64,000 nt of DNA from Octopus sinensis (lineage: Eukaryota), in NCBI RefSeq assembly GCF_006345805.1, contig NC_043023.1:18228001-18292000 (forward strand), in the 5' to 3' direction. Shown here piece by piece: positions 15,666 through 51,927 of the stretch (position 1 is its first letter; each line of letters opens with the position of its first letter). The translations under genes and the position numbers were made by a program. The notes beneath the pieces are model-generated. The model saw only the letters and a list, made by a program, of their open reading frames with translations. It ran no database searches and was not told the DNA's origin.

Positions 15666-18600
15666 CTTGTATACGTACATATTCGGCATAAACACTCTAC
15701 CACTACAACTAATAACTGTTGGGAACACTTTCAAACCTGCCTTACATTTGAACCGGAATCTCAACGCCTGAGTTTTCCATCTGAAGTTAATCTCTCTCAT
15801 AGGCCTCATACAAAAAGGGCAAGTCTTGGGCCCTATACAATGTGACATGTACACAATCGAGTGGCAAAAAAGGGGCCTTCCACATGCTCATATCCTGCTG
15901 TGGCTCTCAGCGAAGATCAATTCCAATGACATCGACAAGATAATCTCTGCAGAGCTTCATGATCCAGCTTTAGACAAAGAGCTGTACGAAATAGTTAAAG
16001 CAAACATGGTGCATGGTCCATGTGGGCGTGGATTCAACATAAACACACCATGCTTGAAGGACAGCATATGTTCAAAAAGATTACCAAGGAGGTTCCTACA
16101 AGAAACTCAGACAGGTGCTGATGGGTATCCATCATATAGACGCAGAAAACCAGAAGACGGAGGTTTCACAGCAACTATCGGACAGCACGATATTGATAAT
16201 AGATGGATTGTTCCATACTGCCCACTCCTGTCAAAGACTTTCAATGCCCACATCAACGTTGAGTTTTCCAACTCCGTTAAATCCATCAAGTACGTTTGAA
16301 AATATGTAAACAAGGGTTCCGACGCTGCAATGTTTGGACTTCAACAAGAATACTGCAAGGATGAGGCGACGCATTATCAGGTGGGACGGTACATAAGTAG
16401 CAACGAGGCTTTCTGGCGCATCTTTGGATTTCCAATTCACCAACGACACCCCGCCATTCAACAGCTTGCTGTGCACCTGGAAAATGGTCAAAGAGTGTTC
16501 TTCACCGATGCTAATGCTTCCCTGTTGGCAGAGGAACCAAGGGATAGTACACTCACTGCATTCTTCAAGCTTTGTCAAGTGGATCCATTCGCTCAAACTT
16601 TGCTGTATCCACAGATTCCATCGTGCTACACTTGGAATAGAAAAAAATGGCCCCACGGAAAGCAGGTCAAATGTTCATGGATACCCTGGCATTAAGTTTC
16701 ACACTTGCCTTGGGCAAGTATACACAGTGCATCCCACTCAACAAGAGTGCTTCTACGTTCTTCTACTACTGCATGAGGTCAGAGCGCCAACGTTCTGGAT
16801 ATGTCTGCACAACATACAGAGAAGCCTGTTATCGACAAGGTCTGTTAGAAAATGGTGCACAATGGGATGCAACTTTAGGAAAGGCTGCTTTATCACAATC
16901 ACCTAAAAGTCTCAGGGCACTATTTGCAGTATTACTACAGGCATGCGAACTGTGTGATCCGGCCACTCTATGGCTCAAATATAGAGACAATCTGGCTGAA
17001 GACTTTCAGCGCCAAGCTCAACTGTTCTATCCTGACATGCAGGGTATCAGCAATGAAATCTATAACAAAACACTCATTGACATTGAATACAGAATTGCTA
17101 AACTGGGTGGAAAGGAATTGTCGACGTATGGCCTGCCATAAGCATTCAGGTCAGGGTCAAATAGCCTTCCCACTGCTGTCATTCGTGAAACAACCTACGA
17201 CACTCAAGCGCTTTCAAAGTACATTGTTGAAAATGAGCCTTAACTACTTCCGGACCAGCTGCAGGCCTACAGAATTATTCTTAACAGTGTACGCCAACGC
17301 GAGGGACGAATCTTCTTCCTCGATGCTCCTGAAGGGACAGGAAAAAACATTTATTAGAAAGCTTTTCCTTGCAGAGGTTAGGCAGCATCAGGACATTGCA
17401 GTAGCTGTAGCCTCCTCTGGCATTGCAGCTACTTTGTTACCCGGTGGCAGGACAGCACACTCAACTTTTAAACTCCCTATCAATTTAGCAGCATCCGAAA
17501 TGTCTTCAACCAAAACATCAACAAAAGCTCAGATCAGGGACAAGTACTTAAAATGTGTCATCTAATTGTCTGGGATGAGTGCACTATGGCTAACAAGGGA
17601 GCTTTGGAAGCATTAGATAGAGCTCTGAAAGACATCTGAGACTGTCAGGCTCCAATGGGAGGTGTAACGCTGCTGTTGTCAGGTGATTTCAGGCAAACGC
17701 TTCCTGTCATTCCGAAAGGCACTAGAGCAGGTGAAGTCCAAGCATGCCTAAAGTCCTCAACCCTGTCGCATCATGTTACAATCCTCAGTCTCACCACTAA
17801 CATGAGAGCTCAGCTACACGGCGACAAAATGTCCACAAAGTTTGCACAGAATTGTTTGACGCTTGGTGAAGGCAAGATGCCTCTCGATGCTGCAGGACAA
17901 ATGGAAGTGTGGTCATTTTCCTCTGTTGTTAATTTAGATGACCTCAAAAACAAAGCCTTTTCCCAACTTCACACAAAACTAACAAAATCACAATTGGCTG
18001 TGTGAAAGAGCAATATTAGCTCCAAAAAACGTCGCTGTTAACAAAATTAATCAACAGCTAATGTATTCTCTTCCCGACACTATACACACTTACAAGGCTG
18101 TTGATACAATTCCAGATATAAATGAAGTTGTGAACTATCCTCCTGAATTTCTCAATTCACTGGAGCCTCCTGGACTTCCTCCACACATATTAGCACTTAA
18201 AGCTGGAACTCCTGTAATGCTACTCCGCAATCTGAAACCACTAAGACTTTGCATGGAACGCGACTGGTGATAAAGAAAATGATGTCACACGTTATCGAGG
18301 CGATCATTCTTTCTGGATGTGGAAAATGTGATGACGTCTTTATTCCAAGAATTCCTCTTACTCCATCAGGAGCAGAAATTCCATTTACATTCAGAAGACT
18401 GCAATTCCCCCTTCGTGTCAGCTTTGCCATGTCCATTAACAAATCTCAGGGTCAAACCCTCTCTGTCGCTGGTCTTGTCTTGGAAGAGCCCTGCCTCTCG
18501 CATGGGCAACTGTATGTTGGCTGCTCAAGAGTAGGAACCAAAAGAAAACTTTTTGTATATGCTCCACAAGGAAAAAACAATGAACAAGGTTTACAACATG

Positions 18601-18792
18601 GTGTTATAATCTCAAAAGCCAGGAGGTATATATTTGATTCCCCTTTTTTTAACAAGCTTCATGTACTTTCATGTATTTATATTAATATACATATATGTGT
18701 GCCTGCGTGTGTGTGTGTATCCATATATATGTAACAGAAAAATCTAATTCTTCAATTGAATGAAACCGGGCAACGCCGGGTATCTCTGTTAG
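14445..18792 (+). mobile_element. Helitron, internally deleted and formerly autonomous
   Basis: Same 5' end A|TCTCTCTATATAT; 3' hairpin ACCGGGCAACGCCGGGT then TTAG|T (CTAG variant); encloses the RepHel remnant. Confidence 0.9.
15826..18590 (+). pseudogene. Helitron Rep/PIF1-type helicase (RepHel) pseudogene
   Basis: HUH motif IEWQKRGLPHAHILLW; Y2 motif KYV*KYVNKG; Walker A FFLDAPEGTGKTF; ASSGIAATLLPGGRTAHSTF; IVWDECTM; GDFRQTLPVI; QFPLRVSFAMSINKSQGQTL; HGQLYVGCSRV. Multiple stops and frameshifts; N-terminus missing. Confidence 0.95.
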
Positions 18793-27895: not shown

Positions 27896-28706
27896 TATTT
27901 TACCTGACCCTTGAACTGAGCGTGACATGGATTAAAGTGAGGGAAGGTTGCACAATAGCATCTGGCTCACTCTCTCGTCCCTTCCTCTGTGATTTCAGTG
28001 GAAGGATGAAGTTAAGAAAACAACAGACAGGTGGCAGTTCACCCTCCACAAAGTTTGCGAGTCCTTTGAGCCTGTCTAGTGGTTCCCTCAGCACACTCCA
28101 CCGGTTCACATCCTTAGATAGACAAGCCCTAGTCCACCAATGGTTAAAGGCCGTGTGCTACCCTTACCATGGTTTAGCCAGCCTGTGGAAGCCGTGAGCC
28201 TGGGTGTGGATAATGTTGCATGCAGATAGCATTGATGAACCACAGGTGAGAGGTGGGAGTCACGGGAGGACCAAAGCGGACGGACTACTCCAAGGAGTTC
28301 TACATATGCTTTAACGTTTCAAGCAACGATTTTTCTTCAGAAACAGAAGAAAGTTTAATAGAAATGAAGACAGAGGAATAGAATCGCCAACGATTCACAT
28401 GTGGTTACATTTTGAAGAAATATACTATATATATATATATATATATAATGAAGGGTGAAATTAATTAATTTGAAAAATTATCAATTACACCAAGTAGTCT
28501 TCGGCAGTAAAAGCCTCATTCGAGGAAATTTAAGTATATAAGCAATAAGGGGTTAGCAACGAGTTGCTTACACATACCGAATTTAGAAATAGCAGTCAAA
28601 GGGTTATAGCTATTTCTTCTATAAAAAAGGGGATCTCAGTAAAAACAGCATTTAGGCACAAACACAGAGAATGAATTGACTGCAATCTATCATACATTTT
28701 TTTAGA

Positions 28707-28816
28707 TCCACGACGTACGTTTCGAAATCAAGTTTAGGAAAGCATACGATATTAATATTAAATATTAAATAATAAATAATTCTATCTTACCGAAACTTCT
28801 TTCTCTTCAGCGTAGA
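28707..28816 (-). ncRNA. Type I hammerhead ribozyme motif (minimal palindromic helix III)
   Basis: Minus strand TCTACG-CTGAAGA-[GAAA...TTTC]-GAAAC-GTAC-GTC-GTGGA; stem I needs one extra C, which is present in the sister copy. Confidence 0.7.
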
Positions 28817-29312
28817 ATACTATAATCATAAATGATTATATAGAATTTTGAGATCAGAAGGACTCCACTCAGTATCAGAGCGAGCTAGACGCAACTGTAT
28901 CAGAATTAATTTGTGAATGAAACGATTGTGCCAACAGCCCCTCCCCACCGCGTGTAGAAACAAGATGCTATGTCATCTATGAGATAAAATAGTATCGTAT
29001 ATATGAATGTGTAATTAATTTGGATTATCAATTACACCAAGTAGTCTTGGCATGTAAAAGCCTCATTCGAAAATTTAAGTAATGACGCAATAAGGGTTTG
29101 CAACGAGTTGCCTACCACATACCGAATTTAGAAATAGCAGTCAAGGGTAGCTAAAGGGTTTTTATCTCAGTAGATGACATAGCACTGGCTACACTGGGAA
29201 GGGGCTGTTGGCACAAGTTACAAATTGATTCTGTGATACCAGTTGCGGGTTCTAGCTCGTGATAAGATGCCTTCTATTCAAAAGTCAATATTATAATCAT
29301 TATGTATAGTAT

Positions 29313-29416
29313 TCTACGCTGAAGAGAAAAGAGTTTCGGTAGATAGAATTAGTATTATTTAATATTTAATATTTATTCGTAGCTTAAAACTTGATTTCGA
29401 AACGTACGTCCGGGAC
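29313..29416 (+). ncRNA. Type I hammerhead ribozyme motif
   Basis: TCTACG-CTGAAGA(29319-25)-long stem II-GAAAC(29399-403)-GTAC-GTC-CGGGA; stem I imperfect in this copy. Confidence 0.7.
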
Positions 29417-31535: not shown

Positions 31536-31640
<105 letters not shown>

Positions 31641-31805
31641 AAATCAAATTGCGATAAAATAAAAAATAATTATAATCGCTGGTATTACTAACACAAGCCA
31701 TATATTTTTCATATATCAGTACATTAAGGCGAAATATGTGCTAGGAATACAGAAGCTTGATAAATTAAGTGAAATGAAGATAAAAACATTTACTAAACCG
31801 GTAAT

Positions 31806-31877
31806 TCTCAGACTGCAGTTTCTTTCTTTTCAGCAATAAAGATAATTTATTTGCTCAGGGAGAATTCTTCAGTGAGA
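31806..31877 (-). ncRNA. Type I hammerhead ribozyme, copy 1
   Basis: Minus strand TCTCA-CTGAAGA-[stem II]-GAAAC-TGCA-GTC^TGAGA; stem I TCTCA/TGAGA is perfect; predicted cut at 31811/31810. Confidence 0.85.
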
Positions 31878-32202
31878 CCCTGTTTTTCTGGGATCCTAAC
31901 TCACTAGAAGCATGTGCGTCTAATGATTTACTCTCCCTAACTAATCATATCACTGCGCAGACTCCGAACGTCCCGACAAAACTAGGGAATTCTGGTATAT
32001 CGCCTGGCGCTCGTAATTTATCGAGAAATATGTAAACAAATCAAATTGCGATAAAATAAAAAATAATTATAATCGCTGGTATTACTAACACAAGCCATAT
32101 ATTTTTCATATATCAGTACATTAAGGCGAAATATGTGCTAGGAATACAGAAGCTTGATAAATTAAGTGAAATGAAGATAAAAACATTTACTAAACCGGTA
32201 AT

Positions 32203-32274
32203 TCTCAGACTGCAGTTTCTTTCTTTTCAGCAATAAAGATAATTTATTTGCTCAGGGAGAATTCTTCAGTGAGA
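32203..32274 (-). ncRNA. Type I hammerhead ribozyme, copy 2
   Basis: Identical motif 397 bp from copy 1; predicted cut at 32208/32207. Confidence 0.85.
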
Positions 32275-32597
32275 CCCTGTTTTTCTGGGATCCTAACTCA
32301 CTAGAAGCATGTGCGTCTAATGATTTACTCTCCTAACTAATCATATCACTGCGCAGACTCCGAACGTCCCGACAACACTAGGGAATTCTGGTATATCGCC
32401 TGGCGCTCATAATTTATCGAGAAATATGTAAACAAATCAAATTGCGATAAAATAAAAATAATTATAATCGCTGGTATTACTAACAGAAGCCATATATTTT
32501 TCATATATCAGTACATTAAGGCGAAATATGTGCTAGGAATACAGAAGCTTGATAAATTAAGTGAAATGAAGATAAAAACATTTACTAAACCGGTAAT

Positions 32598-32669
32598 TCT
32601 CAGACTGCAGTTTCTTTCTTTTCAGCAATAAAGATAATTTATTTGCTCAGGGAGAATTCTTCAGTGAGA
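32598..32669 (-). ncRNA. Type I hammerhead ribozyme, copy 3
   Basis: Identical motif; predicted cut at 32603/32602. Confidence 0.85.
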
Positions 32670-33107
32670 CCCTGTTTTTCTGGGATCCTAACTCACTAGA
32701 AGCATGTGCGTCTAATGATTTACTCTCCCTAACTAATCATATCACTGCGCAGACTCCGAACGTCCCGACAACACTAGGGAATTCTGGTATATCGCCTGGC
32801 GCTCGTAATTTATCGAGAAATATGTAAACAAATCAAATTGCGATAAAATAAAAATAATTATAATCGCTGGTATTACTAACACAAGCCATATATTTTTCAT
32901 ATATCAGTACATTAAGGCGAAATATGTGCTAGGAATACAGAGGCTTGATAAATTAAGTGAAATGAAGATATATATATATATAGGGAGAGAGATAGTTAGG
33001 AAAGTAGGTAGGTACATAGACAGATAGACAAATAGACAGATAGACATTGATAGACAGATTGATAGATAGATAGATAGATATATATAGATAGATGGATAGA
33101 TGTATAG

Positions 33108-33142
<35 letters not shown>

Positions 33143-33143
33143 T

Positions 33144-33191
<48 letters not shown>

Positions 33192-33299
33192 GAAGAATAA
33201 AGACAAGTAGTGTGTATGTTCATGCATTTCTTGTGATCCTGTATAAATAGCAGGCAATAAGAAAAGAAAATCCAAAAAGAAGAAAAACAAACACAAAAA

Positions 33300-36200
33300 A
33301 AGACAACACTGCGAGGACGTGGTACCGGTGTCTGAGGTGTGTTGTTGGGCTGCTGATGGGTGGTTGGTGCCCGTTGGGGTGTTGATTCTGTGGGTGTTGT
33401 CACCGATGCAAAATGTGTTGTACACGTTGTCCTCGACAGCTTTGGTGTTGGGCGGATGTGGGCCCTGTTGCGTCTCAGCTGCCTACCAGATTCCGTTTCT
33501 ATTATATACGGTCTTGGGTTTTCAGCTCTACTGACAACCTGTGCTGGGATCCATGTTTTAGTTATGGCATCTTGAGAATGCACATGTTGTCCTCCAAGTA
33601 TCTCAGGTAAGTATTGTGCATGTTTGTTGTAATATTTCTGTGATTGTTCTTGAGTGGCAGCTAGCTTTGCTCTTGTCTCATCCTGGTCAATAGGAGGTTA
33701 GATTAGATCTTGGTCGGCAGAGTAGTTTTGTACTTCCTGCCATTCAGCAATTCTGCTGGGGATTTCATGTCAGCTCTGAGTGGTGTCGCTCGTAGGGACA
33801 GAAATGCCAGGTGTGAGTATTCCTTAGTCTCTCCGTATTTGACTAGTGTTCTCTTCACTGTCTGCACCTGTCTTGCTATAAACCCATGACCTTTGGGGTA
33901 GTGTGGAAATGAGGTTGTAATATTGAACCCATACTCATCGGCTAGCTTTTTGAATTCTTGCGATGTGAACTGGGTTCCATTGTCACATATGATCTGCACT
34001 GGTATTCCTTGCTCTGCTAGAATTCCTCGAGCCACTGTAGTGATTGTTTTGGCTCTCAGGTCTTTCACTTTTCTCGGAAATGGAAATTTGGAGTGGTAGT
34101 ATTCTTGGCTTCCCGTGAACAGATCTACTCCAATAGTGGCCATGGCCTTCTTGGGATGTCACTAGATATCATTTCCTCCTTTTGTTGGGATTTTCTGTAC
34201 TTTTGACAGATATGGCATGTAGAAACTGTCTTTTCTATGTCTTTGTACATGCCTACCCAATATACTGCTGACTTGGCTCGGAGCTTGCATTTCTCCCTTC
34301 CTAGATGCCCTTGCGGGTGAGGGCGCGTGGCTTAGTGGTTAGGGCATTCGGCTCATGATCGTAAGGTTGTGAGTTCGATTCCCGGCGACGCGTTGTGTCC
34401 TTGAGCAAGACACTTTATTTCACGTTGCTCCAGTCCACTCAGCTGGCAAAAATGAGTTGTACTTGTATTTCAAAGGGTCAGCCTTGTCACTCTCTGTGTC
34501 ACGCTGATTATCCCCGAGAACTACGTTAAGGATACACGTGTCTGTGGAATGCTCAGCCATTTGCACGTTAATTTCACGAGCAAGCTGTTCCGTTGATCGT
34601 ATCAGCTGGGACCCTCGTCGTCGTAACCGGCGGAGTAGTAGAGAGAAGATGCCCTTGGTGGATCTTGTCAAGAATCTCTTTTTGCATTAACTTGGGTATG
34701 ATTATTCGGGATCCAGCCATCAGGATTCCATTCTCCACTGATATATCTTCATGGATGGCCCAATATTCACGAATGAGGGGCTGCACCTGGCGTCTCTTTT
34801 CTGGCCACCCCTGAATCACCATCTGAGTAAGGAGCTGGTGTTCCTCATCTTTGCTGGTCCTCTCTTTGATTTCTGCTAGCTTTGTAGTTGTTACATTTAC
34901 AATGTGGTGGACCTTTATGCTTAGTCCTTCCATCTCCTGTTTATCATGTGAGGATAGTCTGGAAAGAGCATCCGCCAATATCAGGACTTTTCCTGGCTTT
35001 ACCTGATATCGTAGTCGTATGTTTGAAGCCTTAACAGTAATCTTTGCAGTCTGGCTGGTGCTTTCGTGAGGTTTTTTCTATGTATTTGTTTTAGCGGGCG
35101 ATCGTCTGATTCAATATTTAAACGTCTGCCATACAGGTATGTATGGAACTTTCCACATCCATATACTACTGCCAGTAGTTCCTTTCAATATTTGCGTACC
35201 TTGTCTCTGTGGGTGAGAAAGCTTTCGAGGCATATGCAATGGGTTTACCTTCCTGTACCAGTGCTGCCCAACTCCTAACATAGAAGCGTCGACTTGGAGT
35301 ATTACTGGTTTGCGTCTGTCATAGTATTGCAGAGTCGTCTCCTTACTGATGAGCTTTTTGATTGCTTTGAAATCCTGTGTGTGTGAAGCACACCAATCAA
35401 ACTCTACGTCATCTTTGTTTAGTTCTCGGAGATTTGCAGTGTGATCGGCCAGCTTGGGTATGAAGGCTCCCATCTAGTAGATGAATCCCAGGAAGCTCCT
35501 GAGTTCCTTTTTGTCTTTGGGTTCTTTGATGTCTCTGATGGCTTCCACTTTAGCTGGGTCTGGTTTAACTCCCTCTGCAGAGTATATACTTCCAAAGAAT
35601 TTGCACCCCTTTGCTTTTATCACACACTTGCCTGCATTGAGTTTGATACCTGCTTGTCGGGTTTTTCTAGATAGTTTCATGTAAATGGAAGTCACGTGTG
35701 GTCTCATCCTTGCCATGCACTTGGATGTCATCTGCTATCCCAATTGCTCCCTTGCAGCCTTGGTAGGTCTCATCTATTTGGCGCAGGAAAACATCTTGGC
35801 TCACCTTCAATCCAAATGGGAGTCTGTTGAATCGATATCTGCCAAATGTTGTGTTGAAGGTAGTGAGCATGGATGACTCTTTGTCTATCTTTACATTCCA
35901 GTACCCATTACTGGCATCCAGTTAGCTGAATAATTTGGATCCAGCCAATGAGGGTGTGATTTCTTCAAGGGTTGGAATTGGATGGTACTTGGGTCGAGGC
36001 ATATCCGTAGGGTACCATTGGGGTTTTCCTTGATTACAATTGAATTCACCCTGTCTGTTGGTCGTGTCACTTTGGTGATTACTTCTTTTTCTTCCATTCT
36101 GTCGAACTCTGCCTTCAGCTTCTCTTTTGGTTCTAGAGCGACGCGGCGAGGTGGGTGAACAATTGGTTTGATATTAGGGTCGACTGTTATATGGTATCGA

Positions 36201-37948
36201 CATTTCGCAAAGCACCCGACTGTATCATCAAAGCATTCAGGGTACATGCTTATCAGTTCCTCTTTGTTTGTGATTGGCGGTCGGTCTTTGATAGGAATAT
36301 CTTTGTCAATCCTGCTTGGAGCTGCCTTCATTTCACCATTGATTGACACAATATTTAGCTTTTTGCAGGTATTGAGTCCAAAAATTGCTGGTCCCTCTGT
36401 TCTTGTGACATAAAAAGAACACTTGATTGTTTTTCCTTTGTGTGTCCCTGTGATTGTTGTTTTACCCAGTTGTGGAATCCTGGTACCTCCGTACGCAGTG
36501 AGGATTACATCACTTGGTGTGAGAATTCCTTCTTTGACTTTATCATCTTGTGTTCTGGGAACATCTTTTTGTAGAGGTTGACAGGCAAGGTATCACTCTG
36601 GGCTCCAGTGTCAATCTTTAGCCTTAAGTCAATGTTTATTCGTTTCTTGCCAGTCTTCTTTTGTATTCGTATCGTTGTGTATGCCTTATTTTTTTTCTGG
36701 TCGTCATTCCAATCTCATGCACATTTATTTTGCCGATTGCCAAGAATTCCTCTTCTGATGTGTTTTGTTCTTGTTGTTGGGCATGTATAGCTCTTTGTTT
36801 TCTATTTCCGCTCCCCTTTGAATATTGGGGCTTGTTTTTCAGGGATTTTGTTATCCTACACATTTTTTCCCAGTGGTTGCGTTTTCCACTGTGCTTTGCA
36901 GTGTGCACCGAATGCAGGACATTTCTTCCGGTTATTGAACTCATGCTCCATACCACAGTACTGGCATGTTCTTTGTTTGCGGGTATGTTTCGTCCTATGC
37001 CTAGATACAATATCTACACTGCTGCCTAGTGCGCTTGTTTGTAAAGTAAGTGAGGCCATTTGTTTGGTAGTGGCTTCGAATGTTCTTGCAGTGTCTACTG
37101 TTTCTATCAACTTGAGAGCGTCCTTACCTTTGAGGGATTTCTGAACTTCTTTATGAGCACACCCTCATATTAATTGATCAACAATTCTTTCATCCTTATC
37201 TTTGAATTTGCATTTTTCGGCAACATTCTTTAGTCTGGACAGGAAATTGTCAATCGTTTCTTGTGGATCTTGTTTCAGGCCCGGGAATTCGTATCTGTGA
37301 ATTCTATGATTTGATCTGGGCTCTAGGTGCCTTTCAAATTTCTCTAAAAGTGTGTCTGAGTTACTGCAAACCCATTCTGACATGTCCCAGCTATTGAATA
37401 GGTCTAAGCCCTCTCTCTCGTCCATAAACGGATGTAGCTTACCTTTTCATCGGCGGTTGTACATATCAGGAAACTTTTGAAAGCCAGTTGAGTTTTCTGT
37501 TTGAATTTCTTAAACGCTTCCACGATATCATCGGAGTCCCTGTTCATGGTTGGATGTAAATTCATCTGTACTGTGACGAGTGTCGACATCTTGGAACCTC
37601 GTGTATGTGTGTCCGAAGACGAAGCGATGTTTTGTTTGTTAAATTTCTGGTTCATTGTGTTTCTGTTTTGTTGTAAAGGCACAGTTTCCGATTAATTATT
37701 TACCGATGCCAGCATGTTATGTGTCGTTTCGTTCTAATGGGTGATAGACAACTCAAATGAGGGCATTGTTATCGTTTTACGTGTTTATTTGTTTTACATG
37801 TTACACGAACTGTCCGACATTCAGCGTAGTAATATTTATATACTTTAGACACAGTTCGTACTGTTTACTAATAAAATAGTGCCAAAGTGGGGATGTATTC
37901 TACATACGTATGCCTACGTATACAAATATATATGAATGTGTAACAACA
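33300..37948 (-). mobile_element. Ty3/gypsy LTR retrotransposon, decayed, 3' LTR missing
   Basis: Domain order: gag (CQYCGMEH...CPAFGAHC), protease (KIDTGAQSDTL), RT (FGRYRFNRLPFGL, IADDIQVHG), RNase H (LQVDAS), integrase (IHQGHL, IICDNGTQFTSQEF, LRRNRAHIRP). Many frameshifts. Candidate 5' LTR at 37715-~37948. Confidence 0.95.
34314..34646 (+). mobile_element. SINE family B inserted in the gypsy integrase
   Basis: Intact A and B boxes; 11 bp TSD AGATGCCCTTG at 34303-34313 and 34647-34657. Confidence 0.95.
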
Positions 37949-46020: not shown

Positions 46021-46161
46021 TTAGTGAATATTCTGTATAAATATTCTGTATACACACGGATATATATATATATATATATAATAAAATATTAGGGAATAAA
46101 TCCAAACTTACAGGGAAAAATCAGATTTAGGATTGAATCCAATTTTATAGTAAAATATTTT

Positions 46162-46370
46162 ATTATATTAAATTAGAGATAAAACCACTATTAGGCAAAT
46201 CATACAATGAAAAACTTAAGCCAATACATAAGATTATTTAACTTATATTTTTTAAATATAAAATTTTGTTATATATTTAAATGATATAAATTAAATAATC
46301 TTATGTATTGGCTTAAGTTTTTCATTGTATGATTTGCCTAATAGTGGTTTTGTCTCTAATTTAATATAAT
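46162..46370. repeat. Inverted repeat (~80 bp arms) in (TA)n
   Basis: 46162-46241 is mirrored by 46291-46370. Confidence 0.9.
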
Positions 46371-47292
46371 ATATATATATATATGAAGTGTCATTCAATA
46401 TGACTGAAGGTGTTACAATACCTATGCCGCTAGAAATAAGAGCTATGGCTCTGTTGCTGCTGTCAACGCACATATGATTTTATACATACATTCCAGCAGC
46501 GACTGTAGATGAAAGCGAGTGACAACTACTGACATCTATATACCGTACGGTTTCATCTCTACACCGGTATATATGTATATATGTAGATCGGTATACATGT
46601 GCATGATAGCAGCAACAGAGCCATTTAGCTCTTATATATAGCACCTTCAGTCAGTTAGCTCTTATTTCTAACACTTTCAGTCATATCTAATGACGTTTAT
46701 TGTTTTCCTTTTAGGTGAAACTCTGCTAACTAGCTGCCTCATTTAATTACACAACTTATACTCTCACACACACATAAATACATTTGTACACCTGTATATA
46801 TGCAACTATCAGTCTATGTCCAATATTTCTGGGTCGTGTGTGTAGAGTCCTGAGTTATCTCCTCCACACGTTCCAATCAGAAGGAACTGGCATTACACTT
46901 TCCGACTGGATTCCCTCGATTGGCAAAATAATATTCTCCAAACAACTCGTTGTTTGTCTACCCCTATAGAGCCTGTCGATTGGTTCGGGTTGAGGAATCC
47001 GTTTTGCACCTCATTTCTTAAACATCCTAATCCCATGACAATCGTACCGGAAGTATATACACCTTGTGGGGAAAACTAATGATTCGACTTGGGGGAATTT
47101 CCATGTATTCGAGCTACGTTCAGTGTCTCGCAAGTATATATATATATATATATATATATATCTGTGTATGTGTGTATATGTGCTTATTTCTCTGCAGATG
47201 AAACATGTAGTATAAATACATACATACATACCTATTTACCTGCATGCATACATATTATACATTATATATATATATATATAGATATAATATAT

Positions 47293-47339
<47 letters not shown>

Positions 47340-47840
47340 TAATATATATATATATATAGTTCAAATTTACATGACACAAAAGTCGAAAGAAGGTGAGGGA
47401 AGAACAATCAAATGTTTTAATTTGGGAAGAATGGAAAAACCTATGACGTGTCGAGCCTACGCTCTTCGATAGAAAATGTTGAGATGAATAAATGGAGAGA
47501 GAACGAAAAGAAAAGGACGGGGATAAAATATGGGTTGGGATCAATGGTTCGACGTAATGTATGCATATATATATATATATATATAAGTTTAACAATTAAG
47601 GATAATCTCTTAATAAGGGATCTTAAGAAGAAAATTATGGGTAGTTAGCGTGAAAACCTCATAAAAGAAAAGAATTCGAAAACAATTTTTTTCTTTGACA
47701 AATTAATTATATCTATATTGTATAGAGGGCATTATTAAACATAAATGCTCACACTAAGAGGGACAAAGTCATTACTACCAAAATTATACTAATCATACCT
47801 AAATGCAGTTTTCAAAGCAAGACATTTAAAAAATGAATTT

Positions 47841-47898
47841 AGTTCTGTATCACCGTGATTTCACATTCAACTTACGTCTTATGATCATCAGCAGAACT
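47841..47898 (-). ncRNA. Type I hammerhead ribozyme
   Basis: Minus strand AGTTCTG-CTGATGA-TCATAAGACGTAAGTTGAATGT-GAAA-TCACGGTGA-TA^CAGAACT; perfect 7 bp stem I. Confidence 0.85.
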
Positions 47899-48607
47899 GA
47901 TTCTGAACACATCATAAATAAACAACCAACCTTACGTAGCGAAGACGAACAGACAACTGCCTACTCCGGCCAAGCACATGGAATGTTATAAATCATATAT
48001 CCGGTAAATGGCGGGCTTTTTACGAACTGCATGTCGGGTAATGAAAAGTATTTCGGAATAAGTTAACAATTAAGGATAATCTCTTAATAAGGGATCTTAA
48101 CAAGAAATTATCGGGTAGTTAGCGTGAAAACCTCATAAAAGAAAAGAATTCGAAAATAATTTTTTTTCTTTTGAACAAATTAATTATATCTATATTGTAT
48201 AGAGGGCATTATTACACATAAATGCCTCACACTAAGATTAATATAATTTTGGTAGTAATGACTTTGTCCCTCTAGTGTGAGGCATTTATGTGTAATAATG
48301 CCCTCTATACAATATAGATATAATTAATTTGTTCAAAAGAAAAAAATTATTTTCGAATTCTTTTCTTTTATGAGGTTTTCACGCTAACTACCCGATAATT
48401 TCTTGTTAAGATCCCTTATTAAGAGATTATCCTTAATTGTTAAACTTATTCCGAAATACTTTTCATTACCCGACATGCAGTTCGTAAAAAGCCCGCCATT
48501 TACCGGATATATGATTTATAAACATTCCATGTGCTTGGCGGAGTAGGCAGTTGTCTGTTCGTCTTCGCTACGTAAGGTTGGTTGTTTATTATGATGTGTT
48601 CAGAATC

Positions 48608-48665
48608 AGTTCTACTGATGATCATAAGACGTAAGTTGAATGTGAAATCACGGTGATACAGAACT
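48608..48665 (+). ncRNA. Type I hammerhead ribozyme (one stem I mismatch)
   Basis: AGTTCTA-CTGATGA-...-GAAA-TCACGGTGA-TA^CAGAACT. Confidence 0.78.
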
Positions 48666-49083
48666 AAATCATTTTTTAAATGTCTTGCTTTGAAAAACTG
48701 CATTTAGGTATGATTAGTATAATTTTGGTAGTAATGACTTTGTCCCTCTTAGTGTGAGGCATTTATGTGTAATAATGCCCTCTATACAATATAGATATAA
48801 TTAATTTGTTCAAAAGAAAAAAATATTTTCGAATTCTTTTCTTTTATGAGGTTTTCACGCTAACTACCCGATAATTTCTTGTTAAGATCCTTATTAAGAG
48901 ATTATCCTTAATTGTTAAACTTATTCCGAAATACTTTTCATTACCCGACATGAAGTTCGTAAAAAGCCCGCCATTTACCGGATATATGATTTTAAACATT
49001 CCATGTGCTTGGCCGGAGTAGGCAGTTGTCTGTTCGTCTTCGCTACGTAAGGTTGGTTGTTTATTTATGATGTGTTCAGAATC

Positions 49084-49141
49084 AGTTCTGCTGATGATCA
49101 TAAGACGTAAGTTGAATGTGAAATCACGGTGATACAGAACT
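49084..49141 (+). ncRNA. Type I hammerhead ribozyme
   Basis: AGTTCTG-CTGATGA(49091-97)-stem II with GTAA tetraloop-GAAA(49120-23)-TCACGGTGA-TA^CAGAACT; predicted cut after 49134. Confidence 0.85.
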
Positions 49142-49263
49142 AAATTCATTTTTAAATGTCTTGCTTTGAAAAACTGCATTTAGGTATGATTAGTATAATT
49201 TTGGTAGTAATGACTTTGTCCCTCTAGTGTGAGGCATTTATGTGTAATAATGCCCTCTATACA

Positions 49264-49338
<75 letters not shown>

Positions 49339-49430
49339 GTTACGTAGAAAGTTTACGTCGTCGCAATGATTATGATATATACACCTTTTGCATTCACGTC
49401 TCAACTCCTACCACACACACTATATATATA

Positions 49431-51426: not shown

Positions 51427-51586
51427 TTATATATATATATATATATAATATATATAGTGAAAGTAAATAAGTTCTATAATGGTTTTAAAAAAAAACCAAC
51501 AATTATTTACTGGTAGGTTTCGGTATGTAAATTTAGCCGATTAACGGTAGGAACTTCTGTAAAGTTCAGTATATATATTTTATATA

Positions 51587-51838
51587 AATAAGAGGCGCAG
51601 GAAACAGGTTGCTTGGCCGCATACCGAAAAAATTAGAAATAGCAGTCAAGACTGTTTATTTCTATTATCTGCATGTGGGACTCCACACATGACATACCTG
51701 TAATTCACATATGCAAAACAGAAGGAATAAATAACGTGTGTGGAGCCCCACTTGTAGATAATAGAAATAAACAGTCTTCACTGCTATTTCTAATTTTTTC
51801 GGTATGTGAACAAGCAACCTGTTGCCTGCGCCTCTTAT

Positions 51839-51839
<1 letters not shown>
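51587..51839. repeat. Inverted repeat (~100 bp arms) in (TA)n
   Basis: AATAAGAGGCGCAGG...CTCCACAC is mirrored by GTGTGGAG...CCTGCGCCTCTTATT. Confidence 0.9.

Positions 51840-51927
<88 letters not shown>

Follow-up and report, generated by a model that had tools for sequence, protein, structure and literature searches.

Introduction

Animal non-LTR retrozymes are described as non-coding, AT-rich tandem units that carry one type I hammerhead each and lie dispersed through genomes as dimers to multimers (Cervera and de la Pena 2020, PMC7229834; Li, Clavereau and Pollet 2026, 10.64898/2026.07.22.740005), with unit lengths of about 300-390 nt given in the main text of the former and 51-972 nt in that of the latter. 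In the publications compared here, their mobilisation by Penelope-like elements (PLEs) rests on shared hammerheads, co-occurrence and pLTR trees, and pLTR homology to a resident PLE was found for only part of the retrozyme families (Li 2026, 10.64898/2026.07.22.740005). Insertions of PLEs, as the main texts present them, are partial tandems with a head-to-head inverted truncated copy and unequal ends, located in AT or (TA)n targets, with palindromes at many junctions and two internal start points (PMC8557442; PMC3846280; PMC11167929). Their tail of 30-40 nt is called 'optional' or 'often at one end' in print. In the case of the PAc protein, both strands of the target are cut and then extended, and the genomic 'tail' is delimited by two internal reverse transcription starts (Frangieh 2024, PMC11167929). 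PMC4209133 was also part of the comparison literature.

Here we describe a hammerhead repeat family of Octopus sinensis that shares features with both systems. The family has a unit of 476-481 nt, and it differs from PLEs by the lack of an ORF, a tail of ~130 nt, and arms that can both contain many units.

Results and Discussion

The window, a stretch of 64,000 nt on contig C27 of the 2.72 Gb host genome (G000), holds one insertion of this dispersed, non-coding 476-nt family, and the locus is ordinary for its family. Units are numbered from u1, the first base 3′ of the predicted cut (window position 48659), to u476. The locus is built up as follows.

47565..47585, no strand: left (TA)n target flank, read from sequence
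47583..48237, minus strand: arm A, u89-476 + u1-266, 655 nt, 1.38 units; 5′-truncated partial tandem ending at fixed site A (BLASTN)
47583..47712, minus strand: ~130-nt 'tail' u136-266 on the arm A end, absent from the arm B end; inner limit approximate
47841..47898, minus strand (runs 47898-47841): type I hammerhead motif, intact, predicted cut after 47848
48236..48241, no strand: head-to-head junction, 2-nt overlap or 4-nt filler, read from sequence
48236..49268, plus strand: arm B, u51/54-476 + u1-476 + u1-135, ~1,033 nt, 2.17 units; 5′-truncated tandem ending at fixed site B (BLASTN)
48608..48665, plus strand: type I hammerhead motif with G>A at 48614 in stem I, predicted cut after 48658
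49084..49141, plus strand: type I hammerhead motif, intact, predicted cut after 49134
49264..49337, no strand: right (TA)n target flank, from sequence and TRF

A preliminary description of this DNA had proposed a two-armed inverted array of ~475-nt units with its junction at ~48238-48243. BLASTN and TRF bear out the array, with a unit of 476 nt and arms of 1.38 and 2.17 units; the junction, read from sequence, lies slightly to the left, at 48236-48241. TRF reports period 476, 2.2 copies and 97% matches for the plus-strand array, and both arms are 95-100% alike to the unit when the latter is searched against the window by BLASTN. The outer end of arm B is ambiguous within 49264-49268, site B being a TA-like decamer at u131-141, and a target site duplication is not readable inside the (TA)n flanks. 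No stop-to-stop frame of at least 120 aa overlaps 47583-49268. L031, a second assembled copy of the locus in the same assembly, has the identical junction. The array was also correctly separated from a 396-nt hammerhead family represented in the same window: the best BLASTN match between the two units has E 1.1. The 396-nt array lies at 31631-32970 on the minus strand; its family has (TA)n flanks and one fixed end ~179 nt past the predicted cut.

Elsewhere in the window, a plus-strand frame at 8766-9344 matches Pfam 7tm_2 (E 2e-8) and is probably an exon of a secretin/adhesion-type receptor. Two broken frames presumably resemble, by their motifs, a Helitron helicase (15772-18734, plus strand) and an LTR-retrotransposon pol (33143-37013, minus strand). 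Further inverted-arm structures lie beside (TA)n at 51570-51856, 46161-46371 and ~28450-29400, the first and third of which share a ~40-nt stretch by eye; they are possibly mini-insertions of other Penelope-type families.

The hammerhead motif

The core and stems I-III are present in all three cut-site copies, in line with the unit pattern given in the preliminary description, except that the copy at 48608 reads AGUUCUA instead of AGUUCUG. This G>A exchange breaks the inner pair of stem I and is found in 1 of 191 hammerhead copies of the family; L031 carries it as well. The cut positions predicted earlier, 48658 and 49134, are right by motif, and a third predicted cut after 47848 on the minus strand can be added. 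The stem II loop had been given as GUAA, which does occur, but across the family it is GUAA or GUAAA, and helix II opens with a U.U mismatch. Such a U.U at the helix II base has a precedent in the retrozyme hammerhead HHR_Amex2 of the axolotl, whose cleavage is weak in monomeric form but good in dimeric form (PMC7229834).

Rfam returned no hammerhead match, neither at gathering threshold for the whole window nor down to E 10 for 47500-49400, and its miRNA matches were rejected as being the junction hairpin. For the isolated motif (folding z = -1.8 to -2.2), the minimum-energy fold is not the hammerhead, at -13.3 versus -8.7 kcal/mol for the hammerhead. Two motif copies fold into a double hammerhead of -30.9 kcal/mol, and helices I and III persist in the unconstrained two-strand fold of -32.9 kcal/mol. 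By prediction, the motif prefers the double-hammerhead form, which the window locus supports poorly.

The best evidence for a real hammerhead motif, and thereby a predicted ribozyme, is the pattern of variation across the family. Position 7 of the core, at which CUGANGA allows any base, is occupied by C/U/G/A in 78/77/24/1 of 180 matched copies, and it is the sole column of 339 scored in which three alleles each exceed 10%. Otherwise, the motif commonly varies only in a single base pair of helix II and in an additional base of the loop. Because position 7 is free and the other core positions hardly vary, the motif reads as that of a genuine, if so far predicted, ribozyme. Older relatives of the unit, ~86% alike, were seen at L034 (5802-6211), L040 (1132-1262) and L171; one is inverted likewise and one has a different helix II. 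A motif with a variant helix II, left as a loose end in run X1, was dropped after giving 0 matches in G000, a similar older variant being present in L171.

Inversion as the normal insertion form

An exact 21-mer spanning the predicted cut occurs 1,181 times in G000 and its reversed control 0 times, so that the family comprises at least 1,181 hammerhead copies. A search with the unit found 1,290 candidates, and the 40 that were scored yielded 226 matches. Our sample of 58 loci consists of 38 distinct places out of these 40 plus 20 new ones from a hammerhead-only search; L031 and L036 were left out as duplicates of L070 and L035, respectively. In this sample, which favours long or similar copies, 41 of 58 loci are inverted, invariably head-to-head, and the remaining 17 are single-armed (11 A, 6 B). 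Head-to-tail units are dispersed across many loci, with arms that reach 10.2 units among the fetched loci, and the outer ends meet (TA)n at nearly all printed loci of the family. The 396-nt family served as a control: only 1 of 20 loci, taken from 40 scored in a family of 762 candidates, is inverted (Fisher p 2e-7). These 20 loci have one fixed end, at v178-180 in 18 of them; one match overran into TA and one was cut short.

All inverted loci with both ends visible combine one A and one B end (40/40; 28 and 12 in two sample sets). A ends lie at u259-267, ~266 nt past the predicted cut, and B ends at u108-147, mostly in the TA-like stretch u131-141, ~135 nt past the cut. Site B is the only near-perfect TA decamer of the unit; site A (u264-266) has almost no TA homology, and the TA-like decamers of the 396-nt unit are all poorer than site B. 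Exact end patterns detect 255 A ends and 313 B ends genome-wide. Pairing was checked for the first 100 places of each end, which share a span with 84 A and 100 B ends. Within 10 kb in this span, outward-facing pairs are A+B in 44 of 44 cases, with A+A and B+B at 0, and the sole other close pair is one inward-facing A/A; 8 of the 44 pairs had been fetched before, 5 of these among the 58 loci. The one-sided end offset of ~130 nt recurs in all 44 pairs. Seventeen loci at which an A or B end lacks a partner, together with three long pairs, show only short arms, arrays or interrupted arrays and have no adjoining PLE ORF.

Arm B is often far longer than arm A (219/3896 nt for A and B in L066; A stubs of 15-20 nt in L168 and L177), and arm A is far longer than B at other loci. 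Because either arm can be far the longer, both ends appear to act as starts. What the preliminary description chiefly missed is that this family normally inserts in inverted form, with two ends that are fixed and paired. Its suggestion of a Penelope-type partial tandem with an inverted segment is supported by the family loci together with Craig 2021 (PMC8557442) and Arkhipova 2013 (PMC3846280). Read from sequence, the loci carry a Penelope-type insertion signature. Their putative tail is unusually long, at ~130 nt, and strictly one-sided, in that A and B occur together in every inverted case.

Among the retrozyme publications, the main text of PMC7229834 contains 'inverted' 0 times, and that of 10.64898/2026.07.22.740005 contains it once, in a reference title, and 'tail' 0 times. 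Literature searches, covering the best 20 hits where there were more, turned up no retrozyme described as having paired fixed ends; supplements may show inverted retrozyme loci. The two-armed inverted form may not be confined to the 476-nt family, because hammerhead-bearing head-to-head inverted repeats unrelated to it in sequence were observed at L107 (6264-7375) and L103 (6286-7228).

The template

Units differ by 0.81% within an arm, by 1.05% between the arms of one locus and by 1.85% between loci. In 28 long loci, the arm majorities of one locus differ at 52 of 7,112 sites (0.73%) versus 1.66% after shuffling (p<=2e-4). Passage through the predicted cut is letter-perfect in 174 of 179 cases. 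Because haplotypes are shared and the cut site is passed seamlessly, each insertion seems to have come from one RNA or one homogeneous source, either uncut or re-ligated. Inner arm ends fall within 5 nt of the predicted cut in 6 of 172 cases with 4 expected, hence no sharp pile-up is seen; with neither a seam nor such a pile-up at the cut, template jumping between cut monomers was rejected as the main route. A mild excess at u1-25 (20/172 versus 9 expected), which is sampling-sensitive and amounts to 8/86 with p 0.08 in the pattern-picked set alone, hints that cut linear RNA was used too. In a single case, L048 (2456-5720), a T/C variant at u53 alternates over six successive units with C in both terminal units, a pattern that a dimer template would give.

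How the inversion may form

With its cleavage and circular RNA as predictions, the family qualifies on sequence as a non-LTR retrozyme, and it was very probably inserted by Penelope-type machinery. Our main reading, to which we assign a probability of roughly 0.55, is that this retrozyme was put into (TA)n by a Penelope-like RT/GIY-YIG protein that primed both target ends on one RNA. The template would be either a multimer of the unit that has not been cut or a circle closed by ligation, and the protein would nick both strands of (TA)n. One target 3′ end would then start cDNA at site A, which is probably chosen by the protein because it has almost no TA homology, and the other would start at site B, probably aided by annealing because this is the unit's only near-perfect TA decamer. 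Each cDNA would extend over 15 nt to ~10 units, and the cDNA 3′ ends would join via 1-7 nt of microhomology or a short filler, often at the same template position, resulting in the head-to-head inversion. The presence of ribozymes on both strands, like the long hairpin, would be a side effect of the insertion and not a device.

L1 elements form 5′ inversions by twin priming, in which the second target end primes on the same RNA and the junction shows microhomology. Here, by comparison, the second start is fixed, the first arm has no stop at that start and the arms overlap in sequence. An L1-type variant in which the first arm stops at B is unsupported, as inner ends of arm A fall at u121-141 in 4 of 83 loci, about chance.

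The strongest competitor of two-ended priming involves the same element and enzyme with a single priming event. A cDNA begun at A would stall, fold on a short palindrome and continue with itself as template, until annealing of the TA-like site B to the second (TA)n end; asymmetric loci would arise from later central deletion or template switching. Junctions were obtained for all 44 pattern-picked pairs (36 newly, two as junction only), 40 of them with both arms typed and a tight junction. Inner ends lie at most 20 nt apart in 20 of these 40, versus 5.3 by shuffling (p 5e-5), so that A exceeds B by ~131 nt, often at short palindromes of 4-8 nt with overlaps of 1-7 nt. A fold-back predicts this symmetry directly, whereas two primers need the extra assumption of the same stop point. 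These near-symmetric loci are short, with a median longer arm of 262 nt versus 1,006 nt, and the excess emerges only once short loci are included; in the 28 long loci, symmetry is at chance (6 within 50 nt, 5.9 expected). It also suits a fold-back that B is the only TA-like decamer of its kind in the unit and that the 396-nt unit, which is seldom inverted, lacks a decamer of this quality. Shared haplotypes are accounted for as well, though a homogeneous source array fits these too, and self-priming on an antisense template has been proposed for a rotifer Penelope (PMC3846280).

Several observations nevertheless speak against a fold-back as the general route. The arm lengths of 14 of 83 loci are impossible for one folded-back cDNA, and a B arm much longer than A is impossible unless the copy also stops exactly at A, a site without TA homology. 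Among 28 near-symmetric junctions with A longer, B extends at least 5 nt further than A in 8, the reverse being true of 3, and by itself a fold-back leaves the absence of A+A and B+B unexplained. Because of the 14/83 forbidden lengths, the B overshoots, the A stubs and the missing A+A and B+B pairs, either both arms were read from RNA or an extra trimming step took place. Granted Penelope-type insertion, two RNA-primed arms are somewhat preferred over the fold-back, which we regard as a possible but less probable general explanation; it may account for the short symmetric class of loci, and both mechanisms may operate.

Tandem arrays and palindromes are unstable DNA, and some loci (L137, L140 and L178) do carry secondary changes, such that the inversion could be a rearrangement of an ordinary satellite array after insertion, by recombination or break repair. 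This is highly improbable, as rearrangement would not place the outer ends, in 40/40 and 44/44 cases, at two fixed and paired sites that each lead into (TA)n, and inversion affects only 1 of 20 loci of the 396-nt family in this genome. Long-read assemblies can produce false palindromes, and the window junction itself was not seen among the listed read-derived contig pieces; a fold-back or chimeric read artefact is nevertheless scarcely credible in view of the unequal arms with distinct fixed ends, the same junction in the L031 contig (same assembly, not fully independent), minus-to-plus arm joints at other positions in contigs of two runs from different studies (X1 and X18), and the rarity of inversion in the neighbouring 396-nt family.

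Within our main reading of two-ended priming, we tentatively propose a further step, namely that a dimer of the Penelope-like protein performs rolling-circle reverse transcription of a circular retrozyme RNA from two fixed starts at once, one per target end. Such a mechanism would fit the strict A+B rule, the identical units across arms, the seamless cut sites and the alternation in L048.

The putative mobilising partner

The window locus was rejected as an autonomous PLE: it has no RT/GIY-YIG ORF, and tblastn matches in family loci lie outside the arrays. We infer a mobilising PLE in trans, and elements combining RT and GIY-YIG are indeed abundant in G000 (147 matches, 5,029 candidates), with frames of 775-883 aa and a CxxxxCxxC-type motif before the endonuclease. 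Such a motif is given for Neptune/Nematis (Craig 2021, PMC8557442), and we read the elements of G000 as probably Neptune-like. One of their families ends in (TA)n. BLASTN of the unit against 50 GIY-YIG loci from these 147 matches, a small share of the 5,029 candidates, revealed no similarity, pLTR homology included. This counts against our main reading, as does the difference between the ~130-nt tail and the published 30-40 nt.

A young RT+GIY-YIG family was observed at L105 (1174-5960; also L106-L109, L112 and L113), with a frame of 781 aa, copies 97-99% alike and an upstream 479-aa frame without Pfam match. It ends in (TA)n ~75 nt past a hammerhead-like motif, the core of which looks altered in the printed copies. 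L035 and L036, ~68 kb apart on G000:C23, present the same array and a GC-rich Penelope-like ORF twice in opposite orientation, either as segmental duplication or as assembly duplicate. This ORF, ~1.2 kb from the L035 array, was dismissed as a chance neighbour, being GC-rich, separated by (TA)n and without any shared sequence.

Read-through RNA and host use

Folding of 47583-49264 gives ~670-690 long-range pairs on either strand, 47583 pairing with 48924. The read-through hairpin of more than 600 bp anticipated in the preliminary description thus comes to a predicted ~650 bp. The accompanying claim that transcription in either direction meets a ribozyme holds for the geometry only. In either direction transcription reaches the antisense arm first, and in the predicted fold this arm pairs with the hammerhead core closest to it. 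For the minus strand the paired core at 47898 is the only sense ribozyme, and on the plus strand the core at 48608 is paired and only the one at 49084 lies outside the duplex. The hairpin is predicted to trap the nearest hammerheads.

Use of the hairpin by ADAR or siRNA pathways is possible, and the host could keep the locus as a bidirectional RNA-processing or dsRNA device, for which a 650-bp hairpin predicted on either strand and family sequence at low depth in contigs of two runs guessed to be RNA might be quoted. Such a role is very unlikely given hundreds of similar young loci, the stem I mutation of the window copy and the predicted trapping of its ribozymes. Contigs of the presumed RNA runs held no locus-specific transcript or editing signal, and A>G differences in the two runs were mostly at family polymorphisms or shared with DNA runs.

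Conclusion

Beyond shared hammerheads, co-occurrence and pLTR trees, the probable mechanical footprint of Penelope-type mobilisation itself is visible in this octopus family, at hundreds of loci. The unit offers a small, defined template with two predicted starts, 135 and 266 nt past the cut, that is usable in the existing in vitro Penelope assay. Such an assay could settle the origin of the inverted copies and tails as well as the question of a circular RNA template. If the circular-template reading is true, the family would be a fossil record of circRNA retrotransposition and, at the same time, a source of hundreds of long dsRNA-forming loci.
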